Assembly: GCA_963519325.1 (NCBI GenBank)
Contig: CAUQPA010000001.1
Location: 1,341 to 65,340, forward strand
Length of the DNA stretch: 64,000 nucleotides
From: an uncultured Pseudomonas sp.
GTDB lineage: Bacteria; Pseudomonadota; Gammaproteobacteria; Pseudomonadales; Pseudomonadaceae
Direction of reading: 5' to 3'
This document shows positions 1 through 58,343 of the stretch, one piece after another; the stretch's first letter is position 1, and the number at the start of each line of letters is the position of its first letter. The notes below the pieces were generated by a model. It made no database searches and had not been told where the DNA came from. It worked only from the letters and a program-made list of their open reading frames with translations. Position numbers and translations under genes: made by a program.

Positions 1-1
1 C

Positions 2-3000
2 ACCCTGGCCGCGCTCCAGCGGCCGGCGGCCGACGCGCAGGCCAACCTCCGACTTGCGCTCGACCATGGCAATGATGTCGGTACCCAGCTCAGAGAGCGC
101 TTGCTGATCTGTGATCACAAGCCCAGGGCGCCCATCCAGGTGAGTGAACTCCTTGGTGATCGCCGGCGTGCTGAATGCGCTTGGGGACAGCTCCTTGACC
201 GGCAGCTTGTCGAAGGGGTCGTCGAGGGATCTCGGCGCCAGCCGCACAGGGAAGGTCGCCGCAGCGCCGTCCTGATCGGTCACCGTGACAGAGACAGTGG
301 TTGCGGTGCGGCCGTCGGTGCTGAAATGGAGTTCATCGCCGGTGAACCACACGTAGCCGTGCTCCGGCTGAGTGGCCACGGAGAAGGTGTGAGAGCCCCA
401 GGTGTTGTCGTCGATCGCGGCAAGTCGCTGGCTTCCACCGACGCCCTCATAGAAATAGACGACGGAGGGGGTGAGGCCGGTGGGCGCGGTGTTGAGCTGA
501 GCAACGGCCACAGTGGCCATCGCTTCGACGTACTCGCCGCCCTTATCCACTACCCGGAAGCGGAACAGGTCGTTACCGACGAAATGCGGGTTGGGCGTAT
601 ACACGTAGCCGCCGGCCGTGGCCACCACGGCTCCCGACTTTGGCTGTTCCACCACCTCATAGGTGAAGGAATCCCAGGCATTGCCATCGGTGACCTTTGG
701 CAGGGTCGCGGCAGATGCGGTGTTCTCGACCGTCCTGATGCGCAGGGTTGCCGCGACCGACGCCAGATTGAAGCGATCGACCTGCAGAGCAATGGTGCCC
801 TGCACAGTCAGGCCGCCAGGATCGGTCGCCTCGATGATGGCGGAATCAGTACCCACGAAGCTCGCCGCCGGCGTGTAGACGAGCCGGTTCTCGACGATGG
901 CCAGGCCCCCATTGGCAGCCTGCTGCACGAGCCGGAGCGTATGCCGCCCGGCATCGGCCACGTTGCGGTCGACGATGCGTGGGTAGTAAGGCGCGCTTGC
1001 CGTACCCTCGCGCACCACGATGCTCCCCGACAGGCTTTCAGGCGCCAGGTTGCGTGGCTTGACGACCACGGTCACGGTGCCTTTGCCAGACTCCCCACCG
1101 GCGTCCGTCGCGGTGATGGGAAAGCTCTCGGTCCCGGTCCAACCGGGCTTGGGCATGTAGACGACCTGGCCATTCAGGACTTTCACCGTGCCGCCCGCGG
1201 AAGTGGCCGGTACGGCGAAGGTGAAGGTATCGCCTGGATTGGGATCGACCACCGTGGGGGTACCGGATACCTCGACGCCCTCTTCTGTTACCAGGCTCAG
1301 GCCAACTCGCGTAGGGCCGACGTTACGACCGCGGACGGTAACCGTTGCGGTCCCCACGACCTCGGCACCGGCAGGATCTCGGGCGATGAATTTGAAGCTG
1401 GTGGTGCCCTTCGAGCCAAAGGGGGCATGGTAGACGAGCTGGTTGTTCACCACCTCAGCGGTACCACGCATCTCCTGAATGGGCACCGCGAAGGTGTGTT
1501 TGCCCGCGTCGTAGAGGTTTTTATCGACCACCTCGGGTGTGACGGGCGCGGAGGCCTGGCCCTCGTTGGCAACCAACGCTGCGTTCGCCGCGCTGGGGGC
1601 GTAGTTGGTCTTGTCGACCTGGATCGCGCCGTCCTTGATAGCCGATTCGGCGCCGGCGGCATCGCGCAGCTTGTACTTGAAGGTGGCGGTACCGACATAG
1701 CCGTCGACCGGCACGAAGCGAACGCGCAGGCCTTCAGTGGTGATTTTCCCGACGCTCGGATCCGGTTGCTGGACGATCACCACGGTGTGGCTGTCCGGAT
1801 TGTCTGGATCGGTCCCGATGACCTGGTCACCGACGACCTCGAAGGCGATGGTCTGTGCAGCGGACACCAGGCCACCTGGATCCGTCGCCGTGACCTTGGC
1901 GCTGGCGGTGCCCAAGTAGCCGGTCGCTGGCTTGAACGTCAGCAGGCTGCCGGCGAGGCTGACAGTTCCTGCTGCCGCAGCGACAGGCTGCTGAATTGCA
2001 AAGGTCAGCGGCGCGTCGTGGTTCGGGTCGGTAGCGGTCAACTCGACAGTGACCGGCGTCTCCATGGCCGTCTTGGCAGATGCGGCATCGACCACAGGCG
2101 CCTGGGCGACGGGTAATACCCGCACCAGGATCACGCCTTCATCCGAGTCCAGGCCAAAGGAGTCCTTGGCCACGTAGCGAAGCTCGCGGGTACCGACGAA
2201 GGTGGCGTTGAGCGAGACCTTCGCCGTCGTTCCCGTGAAGCTGACGCTGCCGAAGGCGGGATCTGCCGCAGATACTGCGCGCAGCGTCGCCGTGTCGTTG
2301 GCGTCTACGTCGGAAACCTGGAGGGTGAAGCTGCTGGTAGCGCCCTGGTTGAGGGTGACCGTCTTGCTTTCGACCACTGGCTTGTCTGCTACCGGCGTGA
2401 CGGTGATGCTCACCGGTACGGGCGCTGAGGCCGCACTGCCAGCGTCGATGACGGCCACCTGACACGTGGTCTTGCCGTTCCAGTCAGGCGCAGGCGTGAA
2501 GACCACGGAGTCGCCGTCCAGGCCGCAGCCACCGATCGACGCGCCCGGCTGGCCGCTCACGACAAATTGGTAGGGACCGTCGCCATCCGGATCGGTGAAG
2601 ACGATCTTGGCGCCCCCCGGTATGTCCTCGTCCGTCACGATGCTGATGGGCTGGGCAACGGGGGCATCGTTGACGCCCTGGACAGTGATTGGGATCTCGA
2701 CCATGGCGCTCTTGGCGCCTGCGGCGTCCACAGCGCTGATGCGCAAGACGTCCTGGCCGTAGAAGTCTGGCTTGGGGGTCAGCTTGATGCGGTGCCCGTC
2801 AGCGAGCACCTCGCCGGCAACGCCCTTGCCTTGTGCTTCGATCACCAGGCGGTAGATGTCCACCGCGTCGGGATCCTGCACCGTTGGCTCAAACGTCATT
2901 TGCGCGTCTTCCGTCATGATGACGGGCTGCGCGATAACCACCGGCGGATCGTTTCGCCCCGTGGTGATGATGCGGATGGTCGCCGTATTGGAGTAGGTGC

Positions 3001-3604
3001 CGTGCTGATCGCGGCCGCGATACTGCAAGGCAACGATGCCGCTCCACCCGGGCACCTGGGTGAAGGTTAGGGTGCTGCCCTCAACCTTGACCTGGCCAAT
3101 GGCGCTATCGGGCGTATCGAGCACTTCGAACTGCTCTGCAGTGACGCCCTCCCCGCCCAACGTGAGCGGCACGATCGCAGGCTGATCTTCGGCCACGGAG
3201 ATTTCGATGTCGCGAGCAGTCGGCTGCGCGATCGCGGCCTGAACGATCACCTCGGTGAGCGTATCGCCAACGGTAAGCACCAACGGGCCGGTGAAGCCGG
3301 CTGGAGCCGTAACGGTACCACTGCAGCTGGCGGCCTCTTTGGTACGGACGCCGCCGCACTTGCCTGCTTCCTGGCCCGTGCCGGCGCCGATCAGGATCGG
3401 GACGCTGTAGCTGCCAGCCGAGGTGCAGCTGTTGCGCGTGGCGCTGTAGGTGAGCTTGATCTGCGCACCGGCAAAAACCGCCCGGGAATCAGGCGTCAGC
3501 ACCGCATTGGACTCGGTGCATTCAGCAGCTTGGACCTGGTTGGTGTAGTGCGCGAGGCCTGCGAACAGCAGCGCGACGAGTCCCTTCGAAATCTTCCAGT
3601 TCAC
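2..3604 (-). CDS. Giant secreted Ig-like (tandem-95/cadherin-like) repeat protein, 3' end beyond window start
   Basis: Absent from the ORF track because there is no stop in the window. Translated by hand from GTG 3604: MNWKISKGLVALLFAGLAHYTNQVQAAEC (signal peptide), then about 11 repeats of the N-x-x-P...E(D/G)...D-x-D...F/Y-x-P...G type. Lies directly downstream of traA, as Ig-like proteins do in IncC/IncHI transfer regions. Confidence 0.85.
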   Translation of the reverse strand, partial: MNWKISKGLVALLFAGLAHYTNQVQAAECTESNAVLTPDSRAVFAGAQIKLTYSATRNSCTSAGSYSVPILIGAGTGQEAGKCGGVRTKEAASCSGTVTAPAGFTGPLVLTVGDTLTEVIVQAAIAQPTARDIEISVAEDQPAIVPLTLGGEGVTAEQFEVLDTPDSAIGQVKVEGSTLTFTQVPGWSGIVALQYRGRDQHGTYSNTATIRIITTGRNDPPVVIAQPVIMTEDAQMTFEPTVQDPDAVDIYRLVIEAQGKGVAGEVLADGHRIKLTPKPDFYGQDVLRISAVDAAGAKSAMVEIPITVQGVNDAPVAQPISIVTDEDIPGGAKIVFTDPDGDGPYQFVVSGQPGASIGGCGLDGDSVVFTPAPDWNGKTTCQVAVIDAGSAASAPVPVSITVTPVADKPVVESKTVTLNQGATSSFTLQVSDVDANDTATLRAVSAADPAFGSVSFTGTTAKVSLNATFVGTRELRYVAKDSFGLDSDEGVILVRVLPVAQAPVVDAASAKTAMETPVTVELTATDPNHDAPLTFAIQQPVAAAAGTVSLAGSLLTFKPATGYLGTASAKVTATDPGGLVSAAQTIAFEVVGDQVIGTDPDNPDSHTVVIVQQPDPSVGKITTEGLRVRFVPVDGYVGTATFKYKLRDAAGAESAIKDGAIQVDKTNYAPSAANAALVANEGQASAPVTPEVVDKNLYDAGKHTFAVPIQEMRGTAEVVNNQLVYHAPFGSKGTTSFKFIARDPAGAEVVGTATVTVRGRNVGPTRVGLSLVTEEGVEVSGTPTVVDPNPGDTFTFAVPATSAGGTVKVLNGQVVYMPKPGWTGTESFPITATDAGGESGKGTVTVVVKPRNLAPESLSGSIVVREGTASAPYYPRIVDRNVADAGRHTLRLVQQAANGGLAIVENRLVYTPAASFVGTDSAIIEATDPGGLTVQGTIALQVDRFNLASVAATLRIRTVENTASAATLPKVTDGNAWDSFTYEVVEQPKSGAVVATAGGYVYTPNPHFVGNDLFRFRVVDKGGEYVEAMATVAVAQLNTAPTGLTPSVVYFYEGVGGSQRLAAIDDNTWGSHTFSVATQPEHGYVWFTGDELHFSTDGRTATTVSVTVTDQDGAAATFPVRLAPRSLDDPFDKLPVKELSPSAFSTPAITKEFTHLDGRPGLVITDQQALSELGTDIIAMVERKSEVGLRVGRRPLERGQG

Positions 3605-3684: not shown

Positions 3685-4077
3685 CTAGTTGATCTGCAGC
3701 AGCGGCGCTGCGCTGGTCACCATGTCATTGGCGGCCGGCAGGGTTGCCGACATGATCGATTCGATGATCTTCGGGGTGTTGTACAGGCCGACCCCGCCGC
3801 CGATACCGGTGGCGAACGCCATGATCGACTGACGCACGACGCCGCCAACGATGCCCACCAGCACCATGGCGCCGGCGACCACGCGGCCGAGGGTGCCCTG
3901 CATCCAGTCACTGATGGTGGTCCAGACGGCGTCGAAGTCGGTACCGCCGGTGCCTGCCATGGCGCTGGATGCGCCCACGACGAGCAGCAGGGCGACGCCG
4001 AACTTCACCAGATCGCGTTGACGACGCGCGCGGTGGGCCGGGTTGCTCAAGGGTTTAGCCGGATTGCTCAGGCGCAT
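3685..4077 (-). CDS. traA: Conjugative pilin
   Basis: Leader followed by AGTGGTDFDAVW..WMQGTLGR and two hydrophobic helices; AAGGAG RBS before ATG 4077; follows traV. Confidence 0.85.
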   Translation of the reverse strand: MRLSNPAKPLSNPAHRARRQRDLVKFGVALLLVVGASSAMAGTGGTDFDAVWTTISDWMQGTLGRVVAGAMVLVGIVGGVVRQSIMAFATGIGGGVGLYNTPKIIESIMSATLPAANDMVTSAAPLLQIN

Positions 4078-4105
4078 GTTGTGTCTCCTTACGAGGGCTG
4101 GGGGG

Positions 4106-4618
4106 TTACGAGGCGGGGATCGCCTTTTTGTGGGATTCAAGCGGACGCAGCGACGGCGTCGGCCGCAGGGATGGCGTACCGACTTCCCAACGGCGCGGTT
4201 CGATCTCGGTGTAAATGAAGCCAGGTACGTTCAGGTCGCCGGCTTGCGACTCCCAGGGCGCGACCCAGACCCGCATGACGGTGGCCTGACTGCGGATCGG
4301 CACCGGATCACGCGCCGGGCGAGGCACGACGTAGCGCTCGCCGGCCGCTACTTCCGGCTGCACCGCCGGCGCCGGGGCGTGGCCGCCGTGCTTTTCGGCC
4401 TCGGCCTTCTGGGCATTCTTCTCGTCGACGATCTGCCGGAAGTTCTCGTTCTCGGTCAGTTGGTACACGTCACGCGCCGACATACAGGTCACGCCGTCGG
4501 GCATGCCCTTACAGCCGTAGTCGGACGAGCCGATCTGCAACATGGAGCAGCCGCTGATCATCGAGGTGAGCGCCGCCGCAGCGGCAAGGCCCAGGGCCTT
4601 ACGCAGGTTCGTTTTCAT
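4106..4618 (-). CDS. traV: F-type T4SS lipoprotein
   Basis: Lipobox ISGC, motifs GC-x-G-x-P-x-G-x-x-C and VMRVWVAPW; gene order. Confidence 0.9.
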   Translation of the reverse strand: MKTNLRKALGLAAAAALTSMISGCSMLQIGSSDYGCKGMPDGVTCMSARDVYQLTENENFRQIVDEKNAQKAEAEKHGGHAPAPAVQPEVAAGERYVVPRPARDPVPIRSQATVMRVWVAPWESQAGDLNVPGFIYTEIEPRRWEVGTPSLRPTPSLRPLESHKKAIPAS

Positions 4619-4712
4619 GAGGTTGAGTATCCGTAGCGAGGGATGTTGGAAGGGGGTAATTCACCCCCTTCCAGGGCGTTCAATAGAAGGGAGCTGGGCG
4701 CTCCCGCTGGCT

Positions 4713-6074
4713 TCAGGTTTTGTTCTTGCTCAGCGTTTTCAGCTTGAGCTGCACACCCTTCTTGACGACGAAGTCGATCTCCCGGGCAGCGTCCACTTCG
4801 ATGACCGGGTAGAGGTTCTCGGCCATCTCCAGGTAGAAGTCCGCGATGCGCTCGAGGGCTTTGCCGGTACCGCCGATCATGGCGCCCTGCATGGCCTGGG
4901 AGTTGAAGGCCTGCTCATAGACGGGCGATACCGTCCGGCCATTCGTACCGCTGCCACTGCTGGCGATGCTGATGCTCGGCACCTGGCGCACGCTGAATGC
5001 GTCCGAGACGCCCTGCATGAAGCCGGCCATCAGCGAGCGAGCCAAGATGGCGCCCTGCTTGGAGACCAGGCGCCCACGCACCCCGGCCTTGCCGTCCTCG
5101 CCAGAGGCATAGGCGTCCATGCCGCTTTCGATGATCCCGCCGTCGTCACGTACGCAGGAGATCGTCTCGGCCCGCATGTAGGCGCGTTCCGAAGAGAGGT
5201 CGCCGAACGCACTGGCAATAAGGAAGCACTCGCGAACGTCTGCGCGGAAGCGGTTCGGCAGTACGGCCTCCTTCTTCACCCGCAGCAGGACAGGGAAAGG
5301 ATCTTTCCGTGCTCCGTTACCGGTGGGCGCGTCGATACCAGTGATGATCGCGCCGGAAAGGATGGCGCCGGCCGGCAGGTAGACGTCCTCTTCCTTGGCG
5401 TCGGCATCGGGATCTTCAGCAGGTGCCTCATCCCCGTAGGACATGATCTTCGGCGGCTCTTCCTTCTTGGGCGCTGCGCCCGGCTTCTCAGGCTCCTTTT
5501 CCGGCGCCGGAGCGTTGGCGAAGAAATTGCCCTGGTTGCGGTTCGGGTCCATCAGCGTACGGTCATACCGCTGGCGCTCCTGCGCCTGCGTCTGCTGCTG
5601 CGCAGCCTTGCGCTCCAGCTCCGCAGCCTTGTCGGGAGTCGGTGCCTTGGACTGCGCTTCCTGCAGCTGCTTGCTGAGGTCGCGGTTGTCCTGCTCGGCC
5701 TTCTGCTGAGCAGCCTGCGTTGCCGCAAGCTGCGCCGTCAGGTCGCCAATTTGCCCCTGAATCTCTTTAAGGCCCGCAGCTGTCGCTTGCTGGGCCTGGG
5801 TTCCATTCATGAGGTTCTTCAACGTGAGCTTGAGGTCGTTGAGCTCCTTGCTCTGCGCACGCTGCTCGGCGTTGAGCGAATCCAACCCGACCCCACGGGG
5901 ATCCGCGTCGGTCAGGACGTTGGTGATTGTCGGCTTGGCGTTGGTCTTGCGCTGTACCTCGCCACCCAGGCTGCTCAGGCCCCAGACGAACAACAGCACG
6001 CCTCCAATCGCCACACCGATGACGGTCCACTTCTTTTTCTGCGGGCTCAGGTTGGCCCATGTTTGCTTGATCAT
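4713..6074 (-). CDS. traB: VirB10-like T4SS protein
   Basis: N-terminal TM, coiled coil, YLPAG..G.DAP, GDLSSERAY, DGKAGVRG. Confidence 0.92.
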   Translation of the reverse strand: MIKQTWANLSPQKKKWTVIGVAIGGVLLFVWGLSSLGGEVQRKTNAKPTITNVLTDADPRGVGLDSLNAEQRAQSKELNDLKLTLKNLMNGTQAQQATAAGLKEIQGQIGDLTAQLAATQAAQQKAEQDNRDLSKQLQEAQSKAPTPDKAAELERKAAQQQTQAQERQRYDRTLMDPNRNQGNFFANAPAPEKEPEKPGAAPKKEEPPKIMSYGDEAPAEDPDADAKEEDVYLPAGAILSGAIITGIDAPTGNGARKDPFPVLLRVKKEAVLPNRFRADVRECFLIASAFGDLSSERAYMRAETISCVRDDGGIIESGMDAYASGEDGKAGVRGRLVSKQGAILARSLMAGFMQGVSDAFSVRQVPSISIASSGSGTNGRTVSPVYEQAFNSQAMQGAMIGGTGKALERIADFYLEMAENLYPVIEVDAAREIDFVVKKGVQLKLKTLSKNKT

Positions 6075-6084
6075 GGTGCCTTCC

Positions 6085-7281
6085 TCAGTTCAGCAGGCTC
6101 GGGCGGGACGAATCTTCCGCCGGCGCCTCGCCCACGCGGGTGACGATGTAAACCTCGGTCTTCTCACCGGCTTCGAGCATGTTGCGCGGCCAGGCAGCGG
6201 CAGCCGCCAGCGAGGGATGCGTGCAGCTGGTCTCATCAAACATGATCGGCGCGCGGCCGTTGTTCTGGGCGACGCCCACCAGCACTCGGAAGTTGTGGCC
6301 CATGATCACCTGGGCGCGGCTGAAGTCGAAGTTCAGGCCCTGCTGATAGCAGGCGGGAAGCTTCTCGCCGCTCTGCAGTTTGGCCATCGAATAGCCCTTA
6401 GGGATACCGCCCAGGGCTAGGGCGCGCATGATGCCTTTGATGGTCTCCATGTAGGGCTGGCCCTCCTCCCACTTCTTGGCCTGCCCGCTGTAGCGCGATC
6501 CGTAACCGAAGCCACCGGCGCTGGACGCACTGGTGCTCCCAGGCACCTGGCCGATGATCAGATTGGCCTCGATGGGCGGCACCCTGCGAGGCGCGAGCGT
6601 CAAGCTGATGGCCACCGATTCGTCGTCCTTGGGGGTGATGTACATCGTCACCGGGCTCTCGCTACCGGTCGACACGTAGATCACGTTGCCCTTTTGCTTA
6701 ATGGTTGCCTGAGAAGTGGTCTGGACAATCGGATTTTCGAACGGCGTGACGATGCGGTTCAGGTGATACAGCGCCGCAGGGATGATCGTGTTGACGCCTG
6801 GCTGCACCACCACATCCTGGCGCGAGCTCACCGGCGGCGCGGCGGCCTCGGGCGCGCCAGAGGTTTTGGCGACCGAGGCCGGGACCGCGGGAAGATCACG
6901 GCCGCCACCGGCGACATGAACCAGGTCGGTAGACGCCTTCGCGGGCGCTGCCTTGACCTGGTCCTGCTTCTGCTCGGTACTGGAGGCCACCGTTGGAGTG
7001 GATGCGGGTGCAGCGGGCGCAACAGCAGGCTGCGCGGCCGCGGCGCTCGGTAGCGTCTTCTGCTGCTGCTCAGCCAGAGCCTGGCGCGCCACCTGCTCGT
7101 CAGCTTCCTGCAGGCCGTAGTCGGCAGGGTCGACATCACGGCCGGGCACCGCGGGGATTTCCTGAGTGCGCGACTCGGCCACAGGGGTTTGCGGGATGTT
7201 GAGCTCACGAGCGTTGGCGATCGATGCTGAAGAAAACAGCGCGACGCCGATCAGCGTGAGGGTTTGGATATTAGTTTTCAT
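6085..7281 (-). CDS. traK: F-type T4SS secretin-like protein
   Basis: Signal peptide from ATG 7281, HLNRIVTPF motif; between traE and traB. Confidence 0.88.
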   Translation of the reverse strand: MKTNIQTLTLIGVALFSSASIANARELNIPQTPVAESRTQEIPAVPGRDVDPADYGLQEADEQVARQALAEQQQKTLPSAAAAQPAVAPAAPASTPTVASSTEQKQDQVKAAPAKASTDLVHVAGGGRDLPAVPASVAKTSGAPEAAAPPVSSRQDVVVQPGVNTIIPAALYHLNRIVTPFENPIVQTTSQATIKQKGNVIYVSTGSESPVTMYITPKDDESVAISLTLAPRRVPPIEANLIIGQVPGSTSASSAGGFGYGSRYSGQAKKWEEGQPYMETIKGIMRALALGGIPKGYSMAKLQSGEKLPACYQQGLNFDFSRAQVIMGHNFRVLVGVAQNNGRAPIMFDETSCTHPSLAAAAAWPRNMLEAGEKTEVYIVTRVGEAPAEDSSRPSLLN

Positions 7282-7909
7282 TGCGCTGCTGCTCCAAACG
7301 CTTGCGAGTGTCTGCGGCCTTAGCCTCGCGGTTTCTAACTTCTTCGGTACGCGGCGCACCTTCATACACAGAGAGGTAGGCAATGACCGGCTTATAATTT
7401 TTGATCTTCAACTCAATCTCATAAGTCATATCGAGTTGCTTAGGCTGGCCGCTCGGGCCGGTCATCTTGGACTTGCCCACGATGAAGTACTTGGTCGCAT
7501 CCTGCTTATCTTGCAGGACTTGGCGCGGCTCAAACTCCAGCGTCACCCGATCTTGGCGAATCTGGCGAACCTGGCTATCAATCTTGTTAAGCACGTCCTG
7601 ATAAATATCGTTGGCAAGTAATGGCTCGAGCGTCGCCTTAATGATCTCGGCAGACTTTGGATTAACGTTGCCAAGTCGATCGGCAATGTAGAGTGCCCAA
7701 GCGCTGACGTAGCTATCCGATGCGCGGTCTTGATCGACCCAGGCACGCTCAGCAAGCGTCGGCGGCTGCATGTCAACGACGGTACTTTTGCGCAGCCAAC
7801 CGATGACGGTCAGTACCTCCACCAGGATCAGAGCGACGATAATCTTGCGAAGAAAGGCGTTCTCCGACATGGTCCCGCGATAGGTGTTTTTGAATTTGCC
7901 GTACAGCAT
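7271..7909 (-). CDS. traE: F-type T4SS protein
   Basis: N-terminal TM, PPTL and LGNV-x-P motifs; gene order. Confidence 0.88.
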   Translation of the reverse strand: MLYGKFKNTYRGTMSENAFLRKIIVALILVEVLTVIGWLRKSTVVDMQPPTLAERAWVDQDRASDSYVSAWALYIADRLGNVNPKSAEIIKATLEPLLANDIYQDVLNKIDSQVRQIRQDRVTLEFEPRQVLQDKQDATKYFIVGKSKMTGPSGQPKQLDMTYEIELKIKNYKPVIAYLSVYEGAPRTEEVRNREAKAADTRKRLEQQRNEN

Positions 7910-7916
7910 GGCGACC

Positions 7917-8198
7917 TCAGTTGAATTCGCGGATGAATGGATTAGGGATAGTGCGCGCCTTTGCACCGGAATATCCCGTGAACCAATAGATCATGTGCAC
8001 CATAAAGCCATCGGGGTGATCATCGCGGTACTTTCGGTACCAACGAGTCAGCAAGAAGCCCGCTATCGTGCAGACCGCGGCATATCCAGTGAACATACCG
8101 AATACGAGACCGATCCCAATGGGAGCAACTTCATCTGCCTGCCAAAACAACAGGTGCGGCGGATCATCAACGTATTGGGGGATATCGATTGGCTGCAT
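7917..8198 (-). CDS. traL: F-type T4SS pilus assembly protein
   Basis: IPQYVDDPP..LFW..DE, GF..H..YW..G, 93 aa. Confidence 0.9.
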   Translation of the reverse strand: MQPIDIPQYVDDPPHLLFWQADEVAPIGIGLVFGMFTGYAAVCTIAGFLLTRWYRKYRDDHPDGFMVHMIYWFTGYSGAKARTIPNPFIREFN

Positions 8199-9007
8199 TA
8201 TTGTGCGGCTCCATTGCCTTGAACGAGTTTCGCCATGGCGCGAAGAATGTCTTCGGGCCCCTTGGCGCCAGAAAGAACTACTTGTCTATTGCTCGGGTTA
8301 TGGCGAACGATGGTGGTCGGTGTTTCCTTGATGCCCAGCTCTACCGCCTCACGGAAGTCCGCCTTCACCTTCTGCAGCGGCTCCTGGTTGTCGATGCAGC
8401 GCGAAAGGGCCGCGCCGTCCAGGCCGATGCTGGAGGCGATTACTGCGAGCGGCTTTTCGGTCCCGGTACCGTTACCTGCGGTCGAACTGAAGATGGCGCC
8501 GGCCATGCGGTAGAACGCATCGTTGCCACCCTGGGCCGCCGCGCACTCTGCGGCGAACGCCTCCCTGCGCGACGCCTCGCCATGGATCGGGACATGCTTG
8601 AACACCACGGCCGCGTTGCCCCGCGAACTGTCGACAACAGCCTTGGGTACTGCGAAATATTGCTTGCAGTAAGGGCACTCGAAGTCCGAGTACTCAATCA
8701 GGCTGAATTGAGCGGTGGCGTCGCCATAGCGACGGTCGCCGGTGATCGGAACGCTTTGGCTCTTGCTCGGTACCGCCGGTGCCGTGGGCACAGGCGTGGG
8801 CGCCGGGGCAGACTCTTCTCGGCGGCGAGAAAGGAGCGAATCGAGTTCGGTACGCGAGAATGCATACGGCTGGATCTTCGCGACCTGGTCGTTGAGCTGG
8901 TTGACCAGGTGTTGCTGATCACGAATCGCCCGGCCGCAGAAGACGGCGGCAGCGATAGCTAACGTGATCGCTACGCAGGAAAGGATGATGGGAAGTCTTG
9001 AGCTCAT
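8198..9007 (-). CDS. DsbA-family thiol:disulfide oxidoreductase
   Basis: EYSDFECPYC active site, cis-Pro ETP, N-terminal TM. Confidence 0.88.
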   Translation of the reverse strand: MSSRLPIILSCVAITLAIAAAVFCGRAIRDQQHLVNQLNDQVAKIQPYAFSRTELDSLLSRRREESAPAPTPVPTAPAVPSKSQSVPITGDRRYGDATAQFSLIEYSDFECPYCKQYFAVPKAVVDSSRGNAAVVFKHVPIHGEASRREAFAAECAAAQGGNDAFYRMAGAIFSSTAGNGTGTEKPLAVIASSIGLDGAALSRCIDNQEPLQKVKADFREAVELGIKETPTTIVRHNPSNRQVVLSGAKGPEDILRAMAKLVQGNGAAQ

Positions 9008-9127
9008 AGGGCACCTCAGCTGGTATAGCCATGGTGCTCAGGCACGAGGTTTGTGTGTGGGCAATCCACGCCGTCTACGGGATCGAACCCCTGGTGGTTG
9101 AGCGATAGAGCGGCAGTACGAAAATAG

Positions 9128-9153
9128 AAACGCCCGGCGGGTGCCGGGCGTTT
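9128..9153. terminator. Probable intrinsic terminator after the traI-traD-traJ operon
   Basis: AAACGCCCGGC-GGGT-GCCGGGCGTTT hairpin just past the stop at 9161. Confidence 0.6.
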
Positions 9154-9160
9154 GTCGGCG

Positions 9161-9802
9161 TCAAAGCCGTTTGGGCAGGTTGCCTATCAACAAGCTTGCA
9201 GCGATCGGAATGAGCAGGATGACCACGAGCGGAACGATCATTGGCGGAATCGGCAGCGGTGCGATAAACGACAGGCCTAGCGCCATGACCACCCACGAGA
9301 TGATCCTCGAGCTGTAGGTGTTCAAAAACGGCGAGGAATGGGCGAAGGTGTAGCGCTTGATGTTCCAGGCCATGTACCCGCCGAGGATCGCCGGCAGCAG
9401 AATCACAAGCATGTAGGGCAGCCACATCATCAGCAGCAGGCTTCGATAGTAGATGTGGTAGCAGACCTTGAGGACAGCGTCGCCGCGGCCGGCGATGAAC
9501 GTTCCCCACTGACTCTCGAGCTTTTCCCAGCCTGGCGTTTGTTTGCCCCCCAGGAAGAAATCACGCACCGTCGCATTCAGTCCGGACTCCAGATGGATCG
9601 TGCTGTACAGCCGTCCGGTATCTTCGATCAGCTGGTCGCTGGCGGCTTTGCCCATCAACGCCTCACCCCAGTCCTGCTCTTTCAGGATCGCAGCGTCGAT
9701 GAATGCATTGGGAACGACGCACACGATGAGCAGGATCTCGATGCATACGAACGCGAGGGAGAGCCAGAACCCGGCCGGCATCCGCTCTTCGATGTCAGCC
9801 AT
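9161..9802 (-). CDS. DUF4400 / SXT-IncC TraJ-like membrane protein
   Basis: Multi-TM protein ending N.PKRL; downstream of traD as in SXT/IncC. Confidence 0.75.
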   Translation of the reverse strand: MADIEERMPAGFWLSLAFVCIEILLIVCVVPNAFIDAAILKEQDWGEALMGKAASDQLIEDTGRLYSTIHLESGLNATVRDFFLGGKQTPGWEKLESQWGTFIAGRGDAVLKVCYHIYYRSLLLMMWLPYMLVILLPAILGGYMAWNIKRYTFAHSSPFLNTYSSRIISWVVMALGLSFIAPLPIPPMIVPLVVILLIPIAASLLIGNLPKRL

Positions 9803-10238
9803 GCTCGGCTCCTTGGATGCTGCGCCACACCAGCCCTATGGACGTGTCTGCCGGAAGAAGCATTGCTTCAAGCCGGGCCCTGACCGAGGCGCCACTCTCC
9901 TTCTCGACTTCAATGAGCAGGCTGTTCTGCATGTCGACCACCGCTGCGGTCGGCGCAGGTTCCCTTTCCAGCATTTCGGCCAGTCCATCGAGGAACGGAT
10001 CCATGAAGGCAACCAGGCGCTCCTGGTCCGGCCGACCTAAAGCAGACTTGTAGGATCGAAGCGCCTCAGTAAGCAGGTCTCGACAGCAAGGCGCGCAGCT
10101 CTCTGATTCGACGACTTTGAACGCAGCCGGCACCACCTGGAGTGCTGTTGGCCAGTCGGCCTCCAAGAGATTGAGCAGGCCTTTGGTTCTGGTGTCGCTA
10201 CCGAGCAGTCGAGATAAGGATTCAAAGCGGGTACGCAT
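9795..10238 (-). CDS. Hypothetical protein in the traD-traJ operon
   Basis: Coupled ORF filling the gap between traD and the DUF4400 gene. Confidence 0.6.
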   Translation of the reverse strand: MRTRFESLSRLLGSDTRTKGLLNLLEADWPTALQVVPAAFKVVESESCAPCCRDLLTEALRSYKSALGRPDQERLVAFMDPFLDGLAEMLEREPAPTAAVVDMQNSLLIEVEKESGASVRARLEAMLLPADTSIGLVWRSIQGAEHG

Positions 10239-10240
10239 GA

Positions 10241-12115
10241 TCAAGCGGCCTCTTTCGTAAGCAGGCGAGCACGCGCCACTGCCTTTTCAAAGTTCTTGGG
10301 TTTGGTGAGCACCGGAATGCGCCCTTTCTGGATCTGGCCGCCGGCGAGGATCGCGAGAAATTCGAGATCTGGCAGCTGGCCGAAGAGTTGCGCTGGAAAC
10401 AGCTCGCCCTCCTCGTCCATCAGGCGCTCTCCGACGTTCAGAGAGTGCATGTGCGGGTCGTCCTTGGTGGAGTTGCCCTGGGTACGCATGACGTACTTGT
10501 AGTAGGTAGGCGGAATTTTCTCGGCGATGTACTTCTGGGTGTCCTGGTCGGTAATTCGCAGCGCGATCACATGGTTGGTATTGCCGAGGACCTGGCGCGC
10601 CTTCGCCGGTGACCCCATTCGCGCTTCGAAGTCAGCGATGGTCTGCGTGGCGACGTAGATACGCATGCCGGCACCGCGGCCCTTGTTCAGCAGCTGTACC
10701 AACTGGTCGTTGACGATCTCCGCCGCCTCGTCGCAGAAGATATTGACCGGAGCGGCCTTGAGCTCTTCGCCGCTTTTGAGGTTGTAGCGCTGTCCGGCGA
10801 CGGCGGCCAAGTCAGCCAGGAAGATCGAACCGAGCGCGGACCCGACCATCGAGTCGGACAGGGAGTCGAGGCCCAGATACAGCACCTGGTTGTTCTCGAT
10901 GATTGTCTTGGAGTCAGTGATCTCGCGGGTATCGCCGCTATCATCCTTCAGCGGCGAAAGGATCGGCCCCATGTGGCCTGCCGTGAGCATGTTGAGCACC
11001 GGCAGCAGCGTCGCGATCATCTTTCCGAAGTGATCCCGGTCATGCTCGAACATGGACAGGATGCCCTCCAGATCGGAATTCGGCTTAAGCGGCACGATTT
11101 CTCTGCGGTAGACCGTGATCAGCGCCTTTGCTTTGGCCTCGTCGGTTTTCGACTGGTTGGCAGCCGCGGCGGCGAACGCGTCGAAAGCCGGATGGACTGA
11201 CTTGCCGTAAGCCGTGACCGCCTGGATGACCAGGGATGCAAGGCCACCCTCGAGCGCCCGGCGAATCTGGACCAGGGTTGGGAAGATGTCGCAGAACAGC
11301 ATCGCCTGGATGACGTTGTTCACGGCCATCTGCGCGAATGCCTGGAACGGACCCTCACCATCAGTCAGCGCAGCGATGCGCGATGCCAGTTCGGTTGCAC
11401 GACCAAAGTTCTGCGTCGGTGAGATACGCACGCAGGTATCTGGGAACGCCGGGTGGAAGTGCTTGTAGCGACTGACATCCCCGGCGAGCTCGCAGGCACG
11501 GCGCGCGTTCTCCGACATCTCCTTGTCGCCCTTCGGATCAAGGATGATCACCGACTCGCCACGCAAAATGGCCTGGCTGATCAGCAGGTCGAAGAGGCGG
11601 GTCTTTCCGCTACCGGTAGTGCCGACGATCAGCGTATGCAGGGAGGCAAGGGAATCCTTGTAGCCAATCGGCACATCGCGCTGAAGGGAGATGCCATGGA
11701 TCCACGGCGAGCCCATAAATCCTTCCGGTACAGGCGGCATGAGCTTCGTGATGTCTCGCTTGAGCAGCTCGAATACCTGCTGACCTTCGCGTTGAGTCCA
11801 TTTGAAGCCGACACCGATGTACATCTTGTCGCGATGCTTGAGCATCTGCTCGATGAGCTCGTCCTGCCCCATCAGCGTCGCCTGCTGCGCTCGCAACCCC
11901 TGGCGAATCCGGTGGAGGTGCAGGGCAGCAGGGACACGCCGAAGCGCAAAGCCGCCCATGATGCCGAGGGACAGGTAGAAGGGTTGAGCAGGCAGATTGG
12001 TGGTGAGGTGCACGGCACAGGTGCCCGCCATCCCCAACACCCAGCCGGCAATTTCGATGGCCTCGAAATTCGGCCGCCAGGGCATTTCGTACGTCCACTC
12101 ACTCATCGGAATCAC
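10241..12115 (-). CDS. traD: Type IV coupling protein
   Basis: YEMPWRP N-terminus, Walker A GTTGSGKT, DPKGD, DEAAE, LNKGRGAG, ATQT. Confidence 0.93.
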   Translation of the reverse strand: MIPMSEWTYEMPWRPNFEAIEIAGWVLGMAGTCAVHLTTNLPAQPFYLSLGIMGGFALRRVPAALHLHRIRQGLRAQQATLMGQDELIEQMLKHRDKMYIGVGFKWTQREGQQVFELLKRDITKLMPPVPEGFMGSPWIHGISLQRDVPIGYKDSLASLHTLIVGTTGSGKTRLFDLLISQAILRGESVIILDPKGDKEMSENARRACELAGDVSRYKHFHPAFPDTCVRISPTQNFGRATELASRIAALTDGEGPFQAFAQMAVNNVIQAMLFCDIFPTLVQIRRALEGGLASLVIQAVTAYGKSVHPAFDAFAAAAANQSKTDEAKAKALITVYRREIVPLKPNSDLEGILSMFEHDRDHFGKMIATLLPVLNMLTAGHMGPILSPLKDDSGDTREITDSKTIIENNQVLYLGLDSLSDSMVGSALGSIFLADLAAVAGQRYNLKSGEELKAAPVNIFCDEAAEIVNDQLVQLLNKGRGAGMRIYVATQTIADFEARMGSPAKARQVLGNTNHVIALRITDQDTQKYIAEKIPPTYYKYVMRTQGNSTKDDPHMHSLNVGERLMDEEGELFPAQLFGQLPDLEFLAILAGGQIQKGRIPVLTKPKNFEKAVARARLLTKEAA

Positions 12116-15100
12116 TCGGTCAGGTCAATGACGTGATTGTTTCCGATGAGCAAGTAGGGATAGTGCGCAATTAGCGCCCTTTTGAGGGTTGGTTCGTCGA
12201 CCTGGAACGCCGTGCTCAGCTGAGTCAGGCGCCGCATCGATATCTGCACCAGGCGTTTACCCTCCTGTAGCTTGGACGGGCACCTGCGGATGACTTCCTC
12301 AGCCAGCGACCGGAGCATTGCCGATTCCCCCTCATCACGCGCCTGGAAGGCTGACTGCCGATACCGACCTAGAGTCAGCAGTTCCAAGATGGAACCGAGA
12401 TAGGGTGAGAGGAGAAAGCCTTTACGGTGCAGACCGGTGAAAGTGCCGGTGAAGTCGTCGAACAGCCAGTTCGCGTCGAGCAAGGCGGACCGGTCCTCAG
12501 GGGTAAACGCCTCGGGACTATGCACACAGAACGGTTTGCCGTGCTGCTGCGCAAGAGATGCGTGGTTTTCGGGTATCGCATACCACCGTAGCTTTTGCGC
12601 AAGTGTCGGCCACAGGGCCAGATAGGCCTCGCTCTCAGCGGCGGATACCCGGCCCCCCAGAGTGGCAGCGTCATTGGCGACCACCGGTGAGTCCTTAACG
12701 CGCTTCGGCGGCTCTGCCGGCTCTTGCCGTCGGCGTGGCTGGCCAATAGTGATGGATCCTTGCTCTTGAGCACCGCTGCTGATCCGGATCGTATTGTTGG
12801 GCGCGACGGAGGTGGTAGGGACAGGCGCGGCGCGATCGGTCGATCCGCGCGAACCCGCCGGCTGATCCGTGGTTTTGCGTGTTGAGGCAGCCGGGGTTGA
12901 TGACGTTACCTCAGCCCGCTCCTTGCCTCCTCGATGACGTGACTCCGGCTGTGCGTCTGCAGCCATGATCGTCGTAGAAGGCTCTCGCGCGGCCGATCGG
13001 CTCAGGCCAGGGCGGCCATTAGCTTGATGACGTGATGGTGCGTTCTGCTCCTTTGCTGCGCTCGCTCCGTAGTCGGTGGCCCTCTCGCGGGCCGCAGGCG
13101 CGTCCTCGCTCCTGAAGTCCTGTTCCACTAAGGCAATGCCGTTGTCGTTGGTAGCGAAAGAATCTTTCGTCACCGCAGCGCTGGGTGCCCGCAAGGCCCC
13201 TTGCAGGGGTGCGGCAAGGTGATCCGGATCCGGCTCCTCTTCTCCGCCCGGGGTTTCAGCTGGCGACACGAAAGATTCTTTCGCCGATGCATTCGCCTCT
13301 GGCGATTGCACCTTTCGAGGGGTGGTTTTGTGCGCGAAAGCATCGGCCACGACCCGCTCAGATTGGTTTCCGAAAGTCTCCCTAGCGATCTCCTTAGGTA
13401 GCTGCACCGCTAGCGGTGAGCCAGCTGGTACATCGCTCAGACCCGCGGCGGCGGCATTCTTGAGCAGGCGATCGAAGGAAAACTCATCGGCCGCGATAAG
13501 CTCATTGGGTATCGTCAAACCGGCCACCGCCGGCGAGGCAGCCTGGCGATCAGCGATTCGATCCTTGAAACGCACCAGGTCGAGCGGTGATACCTCTTCG
13601 ACTGCTTGGCTCGTCTGCACTGGAGCGCCGGAACCTTGCAGCTGGCGGTCAGGAATGTCCATTCCGACCAACTGAAGGACTTCGTCATCGATGTCTCCAT
13701 AGTCCGCCGCATAGACGCCGTCTCCGTAGCGGACGGCCGGCGCCTCATCCTGTGCAGGCCCAATCTTAGCGGGAGTGGCCTCTACCACCGCCCTGGCGGC
13801 CGAAGCGGTAGCCTGCAGGTCCGCTTGCGTTCCAGCTCGATCTGGGGAGCCGGCCATTTCGCGTTTTGCGTCCGTAGTCGAACTCGACGCGGATCGAGCT
13901 TGCTCAGCTGCCTCTTTTCCTTTCAGCTTCTTCCCCGTTGCGCTCACCTTTCCGCCTGGAGACTCGATACGCACGCCTGCAATTTGCAGATGCGGCTGTC
14001 CAGTGGAGTGACCGACATTGATCTTCAGGCCGCCTGAGGCAGCGGGCTCGAGGACAACCGCTGCCTTCGGCGCTACCTGGTTTTTCTGCGCAACGTCCGC
14101 CTTCTTGGCCGGCACAATCTCCGGCGTTTTAGCGGGACTGACATTTGCCTTGGGAGCAGCGGCAGGAGCTGCAGCGCTTCCTTGCATCGGTGAGTCGGCG
14201 CCGACCTGATGGGAATCATCCTCCTGCACCGGACCCAGAACTGCACCAGCACCGGTCTGTCCCGGGAACTCATACCTGATCTCACTGGGCGCCGCTCCCA
14301 CGGTGCCGGCGGTCGATGCGGGAATGCCATCGAAGCGGAACAGCGCTTCAGGATTCGTGAGCTTGATGCACTTCAAGACGATGGGCTTGTCGCGGCCGAC
14401 GTTGATCTTGTCGACTTTGACGGGCCAGTAAATCGAGCCGTCTGCCGCCGCCTCGACGACCTTGTGATCAAGCAGAATGCCACCTAGAACGTCGGCACTG
14501 CGAGGGATGGCCTTTACGCCCTGCGTCTGCAGATACTCAGCGATCTCAGTGGACGCCTGAGGCCAAACGACGAAGACGTGGCCGCCCAACACCCATACCC
14601 GGTGACCAGGTTCGTTCACGAGCCAATCCTTCTGGCCCAGGAAGTGAATCATGGTGTCCAGGACGAAGGCGGGAATGGGTACGCCGGTGCCCATGCCGAA
14701 CTGACGTGATGCGTCGCCGCCGTGCTTCTGCATATCCAACTCGACGGATTTCGAGTCTGCGCCAGCGACGATGGTAGCGAGCCGTTTGCTATCGTCGCGG
14801 CCGGACATGGCATTGACCATTTCGCTGTAGATGTCCGGCCCGCTCTCGCGCAACCAAACGAGCAGCTCCTGGGGAAGGAACCGTGCGATTAGGGTGGCCG
14901 ATAGGTCCCGGTGGACGTCATGCCTATCCGGGTTCCAGGTCAGGTAGTAGCGATCAATTCCGTTCGCCTGTGCCCAGGCGGGTATAGGTGGGCCCATCGG
15001 ATCCCAGCGGCGATCGCCACGTTCGTCAGCGACGACGACGTCACTGAGCACTTTCCCAAGATCGTGCATCAGCGCCGCGATGACCGCCGCCACGTACCAG

Positions 15101-15558
15101 CGGTTCTCCCGCACGAGGCGCTGAGCGGGAAAAAGCGAGTAATCGAAAGCAGTGCACTTGCAGCTGTTGAAGGCGAACATCGCCACCTCAAGCGAATGGG
15201 CAAGCAAGCCGCCCGGGCCTCGGTGGTGATGAGATTGCGAAGCCGGCAGCAGGTGGACGAAGTCCGCGAACGATTCAAATACGGGAAGAAGCATCCGATC
15301 GAAGCTACCGGCGGGCATGCGAACGCCGCTGGCGAGTTTCTGCATTGTCGCCCTGTGGGGCTTGAGGAGCTGGGCGCCCGGTATTCTGGCTGGCCATCCT
15401 CGTTGGAACGGCGGGTACCGTAGCAGCGCCTCATCGCCGGCCTGGATGAACTGCTGGATCTCCGGAGCGCTGACATCCAGCTCCTGGATGTCGCGGATGC
15501 TAAGCAGCGGCTGAGCGGCAATCGCCTTAGGCGCGAAAAGTCTTTTCCAAAAACGCAT
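12112..15558 (-). CDS. traI: MOBH-family HD-domain relaxase with long low-complexity linker
   Basis: LPASQSHHH..GGLLAHSLEV and LMHDLGKV. Start placed at ATG 15558 because of a GGAG RBS and a putative -10 at 15580-15585. Confidence 0.92.
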   Translation of the reverse strand: MRFWKRLFAPKAIAAQPLLSIRDIQELDVSAPEIQQFIQAGDEALLRYPPFQRGWPARIPGAQLLKPHRATMQKLASGVRMPAGSFDRMLLPVFESFADFVHLLPASQSHHHRGPGGLLAHSLEVAMFAFNSCKCTAFDYSLFPAQRLVRENRWYVAAVIAALMHDLGKVLSDVVVADERGDRRWDPMGPPIPAWAQANGIDRYYLTWNPDRHDVHRDLSATLIARFLPQELLVWLRESGPDIYSEMVNAMSGRDDSKRLATIVAGADSKSVELDMQKHGGDASRQFGMGTGVPIPAFVLDTMIHFLGQKDWLVNEPGHRVWVLGGHVFVVWPQASTEIAEYLQTQGVKAIPRSADVLGGILLDHKVVEAAADGSIYWPVKVDKINVGRDKPIVLKCIKLTNPEALFRFDGIPASTAGTVGAAPSEIRYEFPGQTGAGAVLGPVQEDDSHQVGADSPMQGSAAAPAAAPKANVSPAKTPEIVPAKKADVAQKNQVAPKAAVVLEPAASGGLKINVGHSTGQPHLQIAGVRIESPGGKVSATGKKLKGKEAAEQARSASSSTTDAKREMAGSPDRAGTQADLQATASAARAVVEATPAKIGPAQDEAPAVRYGDGVYAADYGDIDDEVLQLVGMDIPDRQLQGSGAPVQTSQAVEEVSPLDLVRFKDRIADRQAASPAVAGLTIPNELIAADEFSFDRLLKNAAAAGLSDVPAGSPLAVQLPKEIARETFGNQSERVVADAFAHKTTPRKVQSPEANASAKESFVSPAETPGGEEEPDPDHLAAPLQGALRAPSAAVTKDSFATNDNGIALVEQDFRSEDAPAARERATDYGASAAKEQNAPSRHQANGRPGLSRSAAREPSTTIMAADAQPESRHRGGKERAEVTSSTPAASTRKTTDQPAGSRGSTDRAAPVPTTSVAPNNTIRISSGAQEQGSITIGQPRRRQEPAEPPKRVKDSPVVANDAATLGGRVSAAESEAYLALWPTLAQKLRWYAIPENHASLAQQHGKPFCVHSPEAFTPEDRSALLDANWLFDDFTGTFTGLHRKGFLLSPYLGSILELLTLGRYRQSAFQARDEGESAMLRSLAEEVIRRCPSKLQEGKRLVQISMRRLTQLSTAFQVDEPTLKRALIAHYPYLLIGNNHVIDLTE

Positions 15559-15686
15559 GATGATCTCCGGTCTGAAGGCATCATGCGGCCGAGCTTCGCT
15601 GTCGAGTTGCCAATTGCAGCCCATTGACGGCGCGGATAGCAGGCCAAGGCCAGTCAGCGTTCCAATAGGCTCAAGGCTCAGTCAGC

Positions 15687-43142: not shown

Positions 43143-43165
43143 AACACCTTTGACGAAGATCATGC

Positions 43166-43507: not shown

Positions 43508-43514
43508 TGCCGAG

Positions 43515-44572: not shown

Positions 44573-44587
44573 ATCAAGGATTGACCC

Positions 44588-45025: not shown

Positions 45026-45036
45026 GGAAGAACGCC

Positions 45037-54954: not shown

Positions 54955-56388
54955 ATGTCCCGCCTGCAGAAAGCTCTATCCGCCAATCAAAAAGTCTTGC
55001 TCGCACTTTTGCTGAGCGCGCTTGCCTGGACGAGCACAGCGCAAGCCGAGACATGCAAGCTCGATGGCGCAACCTACTTCTGGCTATACGCAAGCGGAGA
55101 TACCAACGACACGCTCTATCGCTACCTCTACATCGAGGGGCAAGAGCTCTACAGCGTCGACAATATCGAGATTGAGCGGGGGGGCTACTTCACCGCCTCC
55201 AACGGCAAACGCTACCGCATTGGGGGAATGACCGACCGAAACTCCGACCATCAAGAGGTCTGCGGGGATTTCGGACCGACCTATCAAAGCACGCAGTCAG
55301 AAACACAACAGGCGAACTGCCCAGCGACTCATCCTAGCGGTTCCATCACTCAGCAGCGCACATTCGAAGTTTGGTCCGATGGCAGTCGGCGCAACTATTC
55401 CGGCTGGAACGAGACCGGCCGTAATTGCCAGGCGGTCTATAACTCGACGCAAACGGAGTCCCGCAATCAGGACTGCCCGGCGACTCATCCCCAGGGCACC
55501 ATTACGCAGCAGCAGACCTATGAGGTCTGGTCGGACGGCAGCCGGCGCAATGATTCCGGCTGGAGGACGACCGGCAACACCTGCACCGCGATCTACTCGT
55601 CCAAGGGATCGGAGAGCCGTCAGCTGAGCTGCCCGGCCGCGACGCCGAGCGGCACCTGGACCCAGAGCCGCAGCTATGACCTCTACACCGACGGCAGCCA
55701 TCGTAACGAGTCGGCCTGGGGCGACACCTCCACCTGCTACAACCGGACGCCAATTGCCGGCAACCTGGCGATCGCCAGCGACGAGGACACGCCGGCCAGC
55801 GGCACCCTGCCGGTGACCGACGACCACTCGACCTTCACCTACCAGATCGTCAGCGCGGCGCCTGCAGCCGCGGGTACCGCTCGCTTCGCCGGTAACACCG
55901 TCGTAATCACACCTACGGCCGATTGGAATGGCGCGACGTCGATGACCTACCGCGCCCAGGACCCCAGCGGCGCCTGGTCGAACGTGGCCACCGTGTCGAT
56001 CACCATCCGGCCGGTGAATGATGCCCCTATCGCCGAGGCCAAGAGCCTGATCCTTGATGAGGACACCCAAGCCAGCGTGCTGCTGTCCGCAACGGACATC
56101 GACTCCCCTGCCCCTACTGCCTTCCAGCTCGTCGCCATGCCGCCGGCCGCGGTTGGCCAGGTCACCCTCGCCGGAGCCACCGCCACCTTCAAGCCGGCCA
56201 AGGACTGGAACGGCGCCACCCAGTTCACCTACCGCGCCCAGGATACCGCCGGCGCCTGGTCGGCGCCGGCGGCGGTCGCCGTCACCGTGCGGCCGGTAAA
56301 CGACGAGCCCGTGCTGACTGATGTTTCGCTCGAGATAAGGACGAAGGAGTCCCTGCCGGTGACCACGCGGGCAGTAATCATCCGCTGA
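54955..56388 (+). CDS. Secreted variable-head protein 1: head, 3 Cys/Trp repeats, 2 Ig repeats, 29-aa partial repeat
   Basis: Signal peptide ending AQA; CP..P.G..TQ.R.Y....DGS.RN.S.W repeats; N..P..EDT Ig repeats. Confidence 0.8.
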   Translation: MSRLQKALSANQKVLLALLLSALAWTSTAQAETCKLDGATYFWLYASGDTNDTLYRYLYIEGQELYSVDNIEIERGGYFTASNGKRYRIGGMTDRNSDHQEVCGDFGPTYQSTQSETQQANCPATHPSGSITQQRTFEVWSDGSRRNYSGWNETGRNCQAVYNSTQTESRNQDCPATHPQGTITQQQTYEVWSDGSRRNDSGWRTTGNTCTAIYSSKGSESRQLSCPAATPSGTWTQSRSYDLYTDGSHRNESAWGDTSTCYNRTPIAGNLAIASDEDTPASGTLPVTDDHSTFTYQIVSAAPAAAGTARFAGNTVVITPTADWNGATSMTYRAQDPSGAWSNVATVSITIRPVNDAPIAEAKSLILDEDTQASVLLSATDIDSPAPTAFQLVAMPPAAVGQVTLAGATATFKPAKDWNGATQFTYRAQDTAGAWSAPAAVAVTVRPVNDEPVLTDVSLEIRTKESLPVTTRAVIIR

Positions 56389-58260: not shown

Positions 58261-58343
58261 ATCCCCTTCCACGGCGTGAACTCACGCCCCAGGGCTATCC
58301 CATGTCCCGTTTACTTGTCCCACTCCCCTATGCCGAGGTGGCT

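Follow-up and report, generated by a model that had tools for sequence, protein, structure and literature searches.

The stretch of DNA analysed here, in the following called the window, comprises 64,000 nucleotides of a contig of an uncultured Pseudomonas species (CAUQPA010000001.1, positions 1,341-65,340; all coordinates given below are window positions), has a G+C content of 61% and is part of a Pseudomonas megaplasmid. At its start, linked to genes for conjugative transfer (tra), lies the 5' part of a gene for a giant protein built of cadherin-like, immunoglobulin (Ig)-like repeats, the sixth of which is short, and further along the window are the genes for three small, apparently secreted proteins which each end in a tail of 29 residues. 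The short repeat and the tails are both confirmed to exist and to be conserved. From sequence comparison and structural modelling we predict, with a probability of roughly 0.6, that the tails complete repeat 6 in trans and so join the small proteins to the giant protein as a modular adhesin. The features on which this reading relies are as follows.

1..3604, minus strand: 5' part of the gene for the giant tra-linked cadherin-like (Big_9 / tandem-95) protein (open reading frame and family matches)
1325..1606, minus strand: repeat 7, complete, best conserved of the 11 repeats (AlphaFold2 and ortholog comparison)
1607..1828, minus strand: repeat 6, short, the proposed socket, 74 residues, without strands A and B, with the DPD loop and strands C, C', E, F and G kept (profile and AlphaFold2)
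1829..2107, minus strand: repeat 5, complete, seven strands, ending ..FEVVGD with no NDxP linker before repeat 6 (profile and AlphaFold2)
54955..56388, plus strand: tail-bearing protein 1, 477 residues, with signal peptide, head with three cysteine-containing repeats of about 51 residues, two Ig repeats and tail (open reading frame and family matches)
56299..56385, plus strand: tail 1, 29 residues, NDEP...VIIR (translation)
56411..57880, plus strand: tail-bearing protein 2, 489 residues, with head of the same type as in protein 1, two Ig repeats and tail (open reading frame and BLAST clusters)
57791..57877, plus strand: tail 2, 29 residues, NDTP...RVSQ, used in the complex model (translation)
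58302..59477, plus strand: tail-bearing protein 3, 391 residues from the ATG that matches an annotated homolog, with unrelated head, two Ig repeats and tail (open reading frame and annotated homolog)
59388..59474, plus strand: tail 3, 29 residues, NDAP...VTTP (translation)

A giant Ig-like protein with one short repeat

The giant gene opens with a GTG codon at 3604, leaves the window after 1207 translated residues and reaches the contig end after 1648 codons; full-length orthologs count 2235-2261 residues. The contig start is, judging from the sequence, probably an assembly break: the last approximately 20 residues of the frame are unlike those of a 98%-identical ortholog, and about 600 C-terminal residues are missing from the assembly. 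Behind a signal peptide apparent by eye, the protein consists of a cysteine-containing N-terminal domain, 11 cadherin-like / Ig-like repeats and about 1100 non-repeat residues which end in weak PKD-like matches. Besides these, its family matches are confined to Big_9 (235 bits, cut-off 23.6), tandem-95 (tand_rpt_95, 190.7 bits, cut-off 90), Cadherin_4 and Cadherin_5.

Repeat 6 lies within 1606-1831 on the minus strand (GDQVIGTDPD...VDKTN, residues 597-672 of the 1207-residue translation) and has a length of 74 residues, compared with 91-94 in the other ten repeats. Aligned to a profile of 94 positions made from the other repeats, it starts at position 23-30 and stops at position 92, while those ten match essentially over their full length; the first 22-29 positions are thus absent from repeat 6 only. 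A first-pass annotation of the bare sequence had put the missing part at about 20-25 residues. The strings quoted there, NDAPVAQPISIVTDEDIP in repeat 3, TIAFEVVGDQ followed by VIGTDPD at the short repeat and TLRIRTVENTA in repeat 10, are all present in the giant protein. A short remnant, DQVIG, is kept and aligns with the end of strand B. In an AlphaFold2 model of repeats 5-7 (271 residues, 18-row alignment, predicted local distance difference test (pLDDT) 89.6, predicted template modelling score (pTM) 0.70), seven strands are found in repeat 5 and five (C, C', E, F and G) in repeat 6, with the 14 residues that link the last strand of repeat 5 to strand C of repeat 6 modelled as coil. Among the sequences of solved structures, repeats 5-7 had no match at E <= 0.01, and Foldseek retrieved with the model only generic cadherin-like arrays (cadherin, protocadherin EC and the RTX adhesin repeat 6xi1).

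The conservation of the gap, which the first-pass annotation had proposed as a check, is borne out by two sets of orthologs, none of which has an intact repeat 6. A protein database search returned 82 matches at E <= 1e-10, the best 16 of which are orthologs; the short repeat is present in all 15 that were aligned (43-100% identity; P0007, a 98%-identical partial sequence, was left out), two of them with a 3-residue insert in the DPD loop. It is equally present, without any change in length, in 7/7 annotated plasmid orthologs with 41-99% identity to the window protein, from P. psychrotolerans, Pseudomonas sp. 4810-S13, P. mandelii JR-1, P. aeruginosa (pF061_2), P. putida YC-AE1, P. frederiksbergensis and P. 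fluorescens SBW25 (pQBR55). In a comparison of 14 full-length orthologs, conservation is highest in repeats 6 and 7, whose mean pairwise identities are 57% and 63% (range over all 11 repeats 42-63%). A private deletion or an assembly artefact, suggested by a source assembly that is a fragmented draft of 689 contigs and by the deviating residues of the giant frame at the contig end, can be rejected with near certainty because every one of the 22 orthologs examined, with identities as low as 41%, has the short repeat.

Small proteins with a conserved C-terminal tail

The three proteins encoded at 54955-59477 end in exactly the 29-residue tails that had been read in the first-pass annotation. They have apparent Sec signal peptides, which by eye look like signal peptidase I type, and their Ig repeats score 95-103 bits to the tandem-95 / Big_9 families, above the curated cut-offs. 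Only these repeats matched a family; the heads have no Pfam or NCBIfam match, and in the ESM Atlas head 3 had leads below the threshold only (0.86 or less) and head 1 no usable match. The heads of proteins 1 and 2 (55282-55746, plus strand) contain three tandem repeats of about 51 residues with two cysteines each (CPA..P.G..TQ...Y..WSDGS.RN.SGW....C).

A homolog search with the last domain plus tail identified 116 proteins at E <= 1e-5. In 56 of these the complete tail forms the extreme C-terminus, and the remaining 60 are either fragments or unrelated proteins of the tandem-95 type. Counted from the Asn of NDxP, the protein ends after 28-30 residues in all 56 tail bearers. Together with the three window proteins, they possess 2-7 Ig repeats and heads that fall into at least 17 BLAST clusters, so that the interchangeable heads postulated in the first-pass annotation are, at the level of sequence, indeed encountered on one type of tail. 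The tail is rich in Arg and Lys, one Glu is invariant in 45/45 aligned sequences, and in the same 45-row alignment conservation alternates along L114, I116, T118 and E120 and then V124, V126, A128 and V130, as expected of a pair of strands that each bury one face. The sequence of the tail shows clear homology to an NDxP linker and to strands A and B of a repeat, the remainder of which is lacking. In a model of the last Ig domain and tail with no partner present, the domain is confident and the tail takes up no secondary structure and has a falling pLDDT (85, 78, 80 and 62 by block). With the tail profile, only the three known open reading frames were matched in the draft genome from which the window derives.

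A model of the tail in repeat 6

One complex was modelled, consisting of repeats 5-7 of the giant protein and the last domain plus tail of protein 2, with our own alignments supplied. The interaction prediction score from aligned errors (ipSAE) is 0.61 in each of three runs versus 0.00 for the best of three controls. The mark applied to this score is reached by 116/157 solved complexes and 2/215 mismatched pairs and is only a rough guide here, own alignments having been used; since neither protein has a solved relative by sequence, passing it does not reflect memory of a like complex. The partner has a pLDDT of at least 85, and the runs agree in at least 92% of contacts, an agreement which, as the runs differ only by seed, is by itself no support.

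The partner contributes residues 102-110 and 112-132 to the interface, which make up the tail; on the giant protein, the interface covers residues 97-171, corresponding to repeat 6, and takes in a few residues from each of the neighbouring repeats 5 (15-23) and 7 (200-201). The least expected error pairs tail residues 114-119 (strand A) with strand G (164-169) and tail residues 122-128 (strand B) with strand E (131-137). These are the neighbours that strands A and B have in a complete cadherin-like domain, so the tail is docked in the native strand order.

Co-occurrence on plasmids

Co-occurrence was counted in a collection of 72,556 plasmids, in which orthologs of repeats 5-7 are present in exactly nine, all from Pseudomonas; these plasmids are all kin and the counts hence not independent. 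At least one tail protein is encoded on 8/9 giant-bearing plasmids, read directly for six of the eight; of the other two, one is more divergent and one crosses the origin of its record. The check on homologous plasmids that had been proposed along with the short repeat thus came out mostly, not wholly, in favour of a link: one giant gene is found without tails, and four plasmids have tails without the giant gene. Giant and tails tend to co-occur, and the linkage is good but not strict. Among 400 species-representative genomes of the same family, no giant ortholog was found beyond that of the window itself (repeats 5-7, E <= 1e-30).

A second type of tra-linked giant protein, in the order traV-giant-traA-dsbC, is encoded on NZ_CP070507.1 and NZ_CP115216.1 and has 10 repeats (pSDM007) or 7 repeats (pF061_1), all complete. 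No tail protein was found on pSDM007 and pF061_1, every match to the tail query lying inside the giant protein. The Ig domains of the small tail proteins show 54-64% identity to the repeats of this second type versus about 35-40% to those of the window giant, which hints that the tail proteins derived from an array like that of the second-type giant.

Two further observations concern the tail genes of P. aeruginosa plasmids. On NZ_OX638702.1 (4200-6654), an IS30-like element is located directly upstream of a tail gene cut to 246 residues, with the head lost and the Ig repeats and tail kept. On NZ_CP115217.1 and CP075772.1, a tail-protein gene stands back to back with a pre-toxin TG domain gene, and a 6.7-kb stretch with both genes is identical in the 343-kb plasmid pF061_2 and in giant-less plasmids of 204 kb and 230 kb.

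The transfer region and other genes of the plasmid

The giant gene adjoins a minus-strand MOBH / F-type transfer region.

3685..4140, minus strand: traA pilin gene (TrbC/VirB2 family), directly upstream of the giant gene (family match and annotated relative)
4106..15624, minus strand: upstream transfer genes traV, traB, traK, DsbA-like, DUF4400, traD and MOBH relaxase (family matches and annotated relative)

The window contains traI (TraI_2), traD, DUF4400, DsbA-like, traK, traB, traV and traA, and its first 3.7 kb show 98% identity to the unnamed 245-kb plasmid of P. psychrotolerans YY7. In the annotation of that plasmid traL and traE are also named, and traA is followed by a 2261-residue 'Ig-like domain-containing protein', dsbC, traC and further tra genes. 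From both sequences the gene order is traI(MOBH)-traD-...-traK-traB-traV-traA-giant-dsbC-traC. Synteny of traA and the giant gene extends to all seven plasmid orthologs, and dsbC plus traC are located downstream of the giant gene in six of the seven. On the P. putida YC-AE1 plasmid (NZ_CP047313.1, 11742-12600), a gene for a group II intron reverse transcriptase follows the giant gene at the usual place of dsbC.

Other genes of the window include an MvaT-type xenogeneic silencer encoded on the plasmid (29149-29532, plus strand, MvaT_DBD E 8e-24) and, at 41446-46984 on the plus strand, a cluster of DUF2170, PspA/IM30, DUF2491, DUF350 and glutathionylspermidine-synthase-like genes, which looks like a plasmid-carried membrane-stress module. 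On the minus strand, the region 48036-52965 contains an AAA ATPase gene (51472-52965) and behind it five open reading frames without family match, two of which (49892-50281 and 51067-51456) have equal length and equal third-position G+C. Two DNA methyltransferase genes, one of N6/N4 type with an Mrr_N-like N-terminus (31798-33045, plus strand) and one of C5 type with 736 residues directly after the tail-protein cluster (59658-61868, plus strand), were noted in passing, and no restriction partner was noticed for either.

Discussion

A proposed assembly

In the assembly that we propose, the giant and the small proteins would be exported by Sec, presumably to meet in the periplasm or on the surface, and the export of the small proteins may ride on the giant protein, by analogy with RSP2 and RSP of plasmid R27. 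The tail would insert in repeat 6 as a beta-hairpin with its strand B beside E and its strand A beside G and complete the sandwich, so that the small protein hangs off the giant protein as a side branch next to repeat 5. Different heads, which may be adhesive, would compete for the one socket per giant protein. As none of the small proteins has an open domain itself, polymerisation would not be expected.

A further argument for this assembly comes from the calcium-site motifs of cadherins, in which the NDxP linker normally partners the DPD loop. Repeat 6 retains its DPD loop though repeat 5 ends without NDxP, and the tail carries NDxP and the invariant Glu; both could be supplied by the tail to the DPD loop of repeat 6. 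The tail segments with NDxP and Glu and the DPD loop are listed in the interface of the complex model, a list which does not give their mutual contact.

Known systems compared

In the donor-strand complementation of chaperone-usher pili, a missing G strand is replaced by a single N-terminal donor extension, with chaperone and usher required. The likeness to this mechanism drawn in the first-pass annotation is partial. As in those pili, an Ig-like fold without part of its sheet would be completed, here in a model, from another polypeptide; on the other hand, what an internal domain lacks here is strands A and B and not G, the donor is a C-terminal two-strand hairpin, and the Pfam scan of 48 open reading frames of the window found no chaperone or usher family. 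The joint, as modelled, would work like donor-strand complementation, though the system does not appear to be of the chaperone-usher type. In type V pili (FimA/Mfa1) of Bacteroidota, C-terminal strands fill the groove left by a removed N-terminal strand, in a pathway of lipoprotein precursors, proteolysis and head-to-tail polymerisation. These pili share with the proposed assembly the C-terminal donor and an acceptor groove that arises from absent N-terminal strands, and differ from it in that the gap is gene-encoded here, inside a long array and with one socket per giant protein. The repeat type is that of the tandem-95 / Big_9 / cadherin-like adhesins (NF012211, PF17963, PF17892), which are known as simple linear arrays; we know of no report of an internal incomplete repeat in them that is paired with a free tail, and our literature search yielded none.

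By position and size, not by domain family, the gene map places the giant protein in the class of tra-linked giant Ig proteins. Among the closest known systems are RSP and RSP2 of R27 and the giant Big protein of the IncA/C plasmid pKAZ3, reportedly the subject of Huttener et al. (2019). With these, the window protein shares that it is a high-molecular-weight protein of Ig domains encoded inside a MOBH transfer region near the pilin gene. It differs in its domains, which are Big_1, Big_3 and DUF4165 in the RSP type and Big_9 / cadherin-like tandem-95 here; the family scan detected neither Big_1/Big_3 and DUF4165 domains nor an RTX family in the giant or the small proteins. The lack of an RTX family and the N-terminal signal peptides apparent by eye also set the giant protein apart from the RTX adhesins of type I secretion systems.

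At ambient temperature, IncHI and IncA/C resistance plasmids depend for their conjugation on proteins of the tra-linked giant Ig class, and on Pseudomonas IncP2 plasmids Big proteins adjoin the pilin gene (Huttener et al., 2022; PMC8730810). The same study describes for the RSP type an export that depends on the type IV secretion system (T4SS), binding to the conjugative pilus and to flagella and a requirement for conjugation at 25 °C, with export of both RSP and RSP2 requiring the T4SS ATPase TrhC, pilin and TrhH (PMC8730810). RSP2 of R27 (IncHI1) co-precipitates with RSP, its export is partly RSP-dependent and both reach the conjugative pilus (PMC8730810). Like RSP2, the tail proteins are smaller Ig proteins encoded elsewhere on the plasmid; the R27 pair co-precipitates, whereas the pair reported here is joined in a model. 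An incomplete domain and a tail, both observed here, and strand complementation, predicted here, are not described for the RSP type in the excerpted text (PMC8730810). Our literature search, which did not extend to figures S1-S4 in the supplement of PMC8730810, where related Big proteins of IncP2 and IncA/C plasmids may be shown, found no paper that links strand complementation to Ig or cadherin-like proteins of transfer regions.

Alternative explanations

Several observations weigh against the completion of repeat 6 by the tails and are at the same time what would be expected if the two features were unrelated, that is, if repeat 6 were a stable five-strand variant or a hinge and the tail a conserved remnant of a third repeat which caps the last domain, binds another partner or self-associates. 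AlphaFold2 is confident on repeat 6 alone as a five-strand body (blocks 82-95, which are no measure of stability), and the repeat may be such a stable variant. The claim of the first-pass annotation that the tails complete repeat 6 is supported by the docking in native strand order, but not in its implied exactness: by our own reading of sequence, alignment and model, tail and gap overlap by approximately 5 residues and are no exact jigsaw fit. Donor and acceptor are homologous halves of one well-known fold, which the model may join whether or not they meet in the cell. On the P. mandelii JR-1 plasmid, which has the giant gene with the short repeat, the tail query matches only inside the giant protein. 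Conversely, tail proteins persist without the giant protein on four P. aeruginosa plasmids (NZ_CP115230.1, NZ_OX638702.1, CP075772.1 and NZ_CP115197.1), with intact copies read on two; TraB had no match on the three of them that were searched (NZ_CP115230.1, NZ_OX638702.1 and CP075772.1). Over a stretch of 6.7 kb, two of the four show 100% identity with the giant-bearing pF061_2 and are therefore very recent variants; the other two form a separate lineage with 93% identity to each other, and on one of them an IS30-like element cuts a tail gene. Against unrelated features speak the tail that is modelled without structure on its own and yet conserved in the alternation of buried strands, its fixed length in 56/56 bearers, its docking in repeat 6 and nowhere else in the 271-residue fragment and the lack of tail proteins on plasmids whose giant proteins have complete repeats only, and we consider this explanation unlikely, though one to be taken seriously.

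It is improbable that the tail instead acts as a C-terminal signal for export or anchoring, such as T4SS-dependent release or insertion in the outer membrane. Its C-terminal position, its fixed length, its richness in Arg and Lys and the T4SS components required by RSP and RSP2 would fit such a role, but the giant protein has no such tail and ends in PKD-like domains, the small proteins have Sec signal peptides by appearance, and the tail is plainly homologous to repeat strands A and B. Moreover, outer-membrane beta-signals usually end in an aromatic residue, as none of the tails does. A donor in cis, by which repeat 6 would be completed by another segment of the giant protein, be it the domain at its N-terminus or the C-terminal half with its roughly 1100 residues outside the repeats, is given room by the model, which covered repeats 5-7 and none of the remaining 1990 residues. 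As the tail profile finds no full tail-like segment in five full-length giant orthologs (best match 10 bits, partial), we regard such a donor as very improbable.

Significance

If tails and repeat 6 pair as predicted, a concrete assembly rule would be at hand for complexes of a tra-linked giant Ig protein with smaller Ig partners, and strand complementation would reach past the polymerisation of pili to a fibrillar adhesin that is decorated in modular fashion. In repeat proteins, a repeat of unusual length could then be the sign of a binding site and not of decay. A wider extension, put forward here with considerable doubt, is that Pseudomonas MOBH megaplasmids build a branched mating adhesin by two-strand hairpin complementation, with a universal socket, at least 17 head types on a plug of 28-30 residues and plug genes that set the export of the heads and the surface or recipient that is gripped; the tuning of recipient range suggested in the first-pass annotation is likewise speculative. 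Should the predicted pairing hold, one small conserved interface on Pseudomonas megaplasmids, some of them from clinical P. aeruginosa, would be open to probing or blocking.

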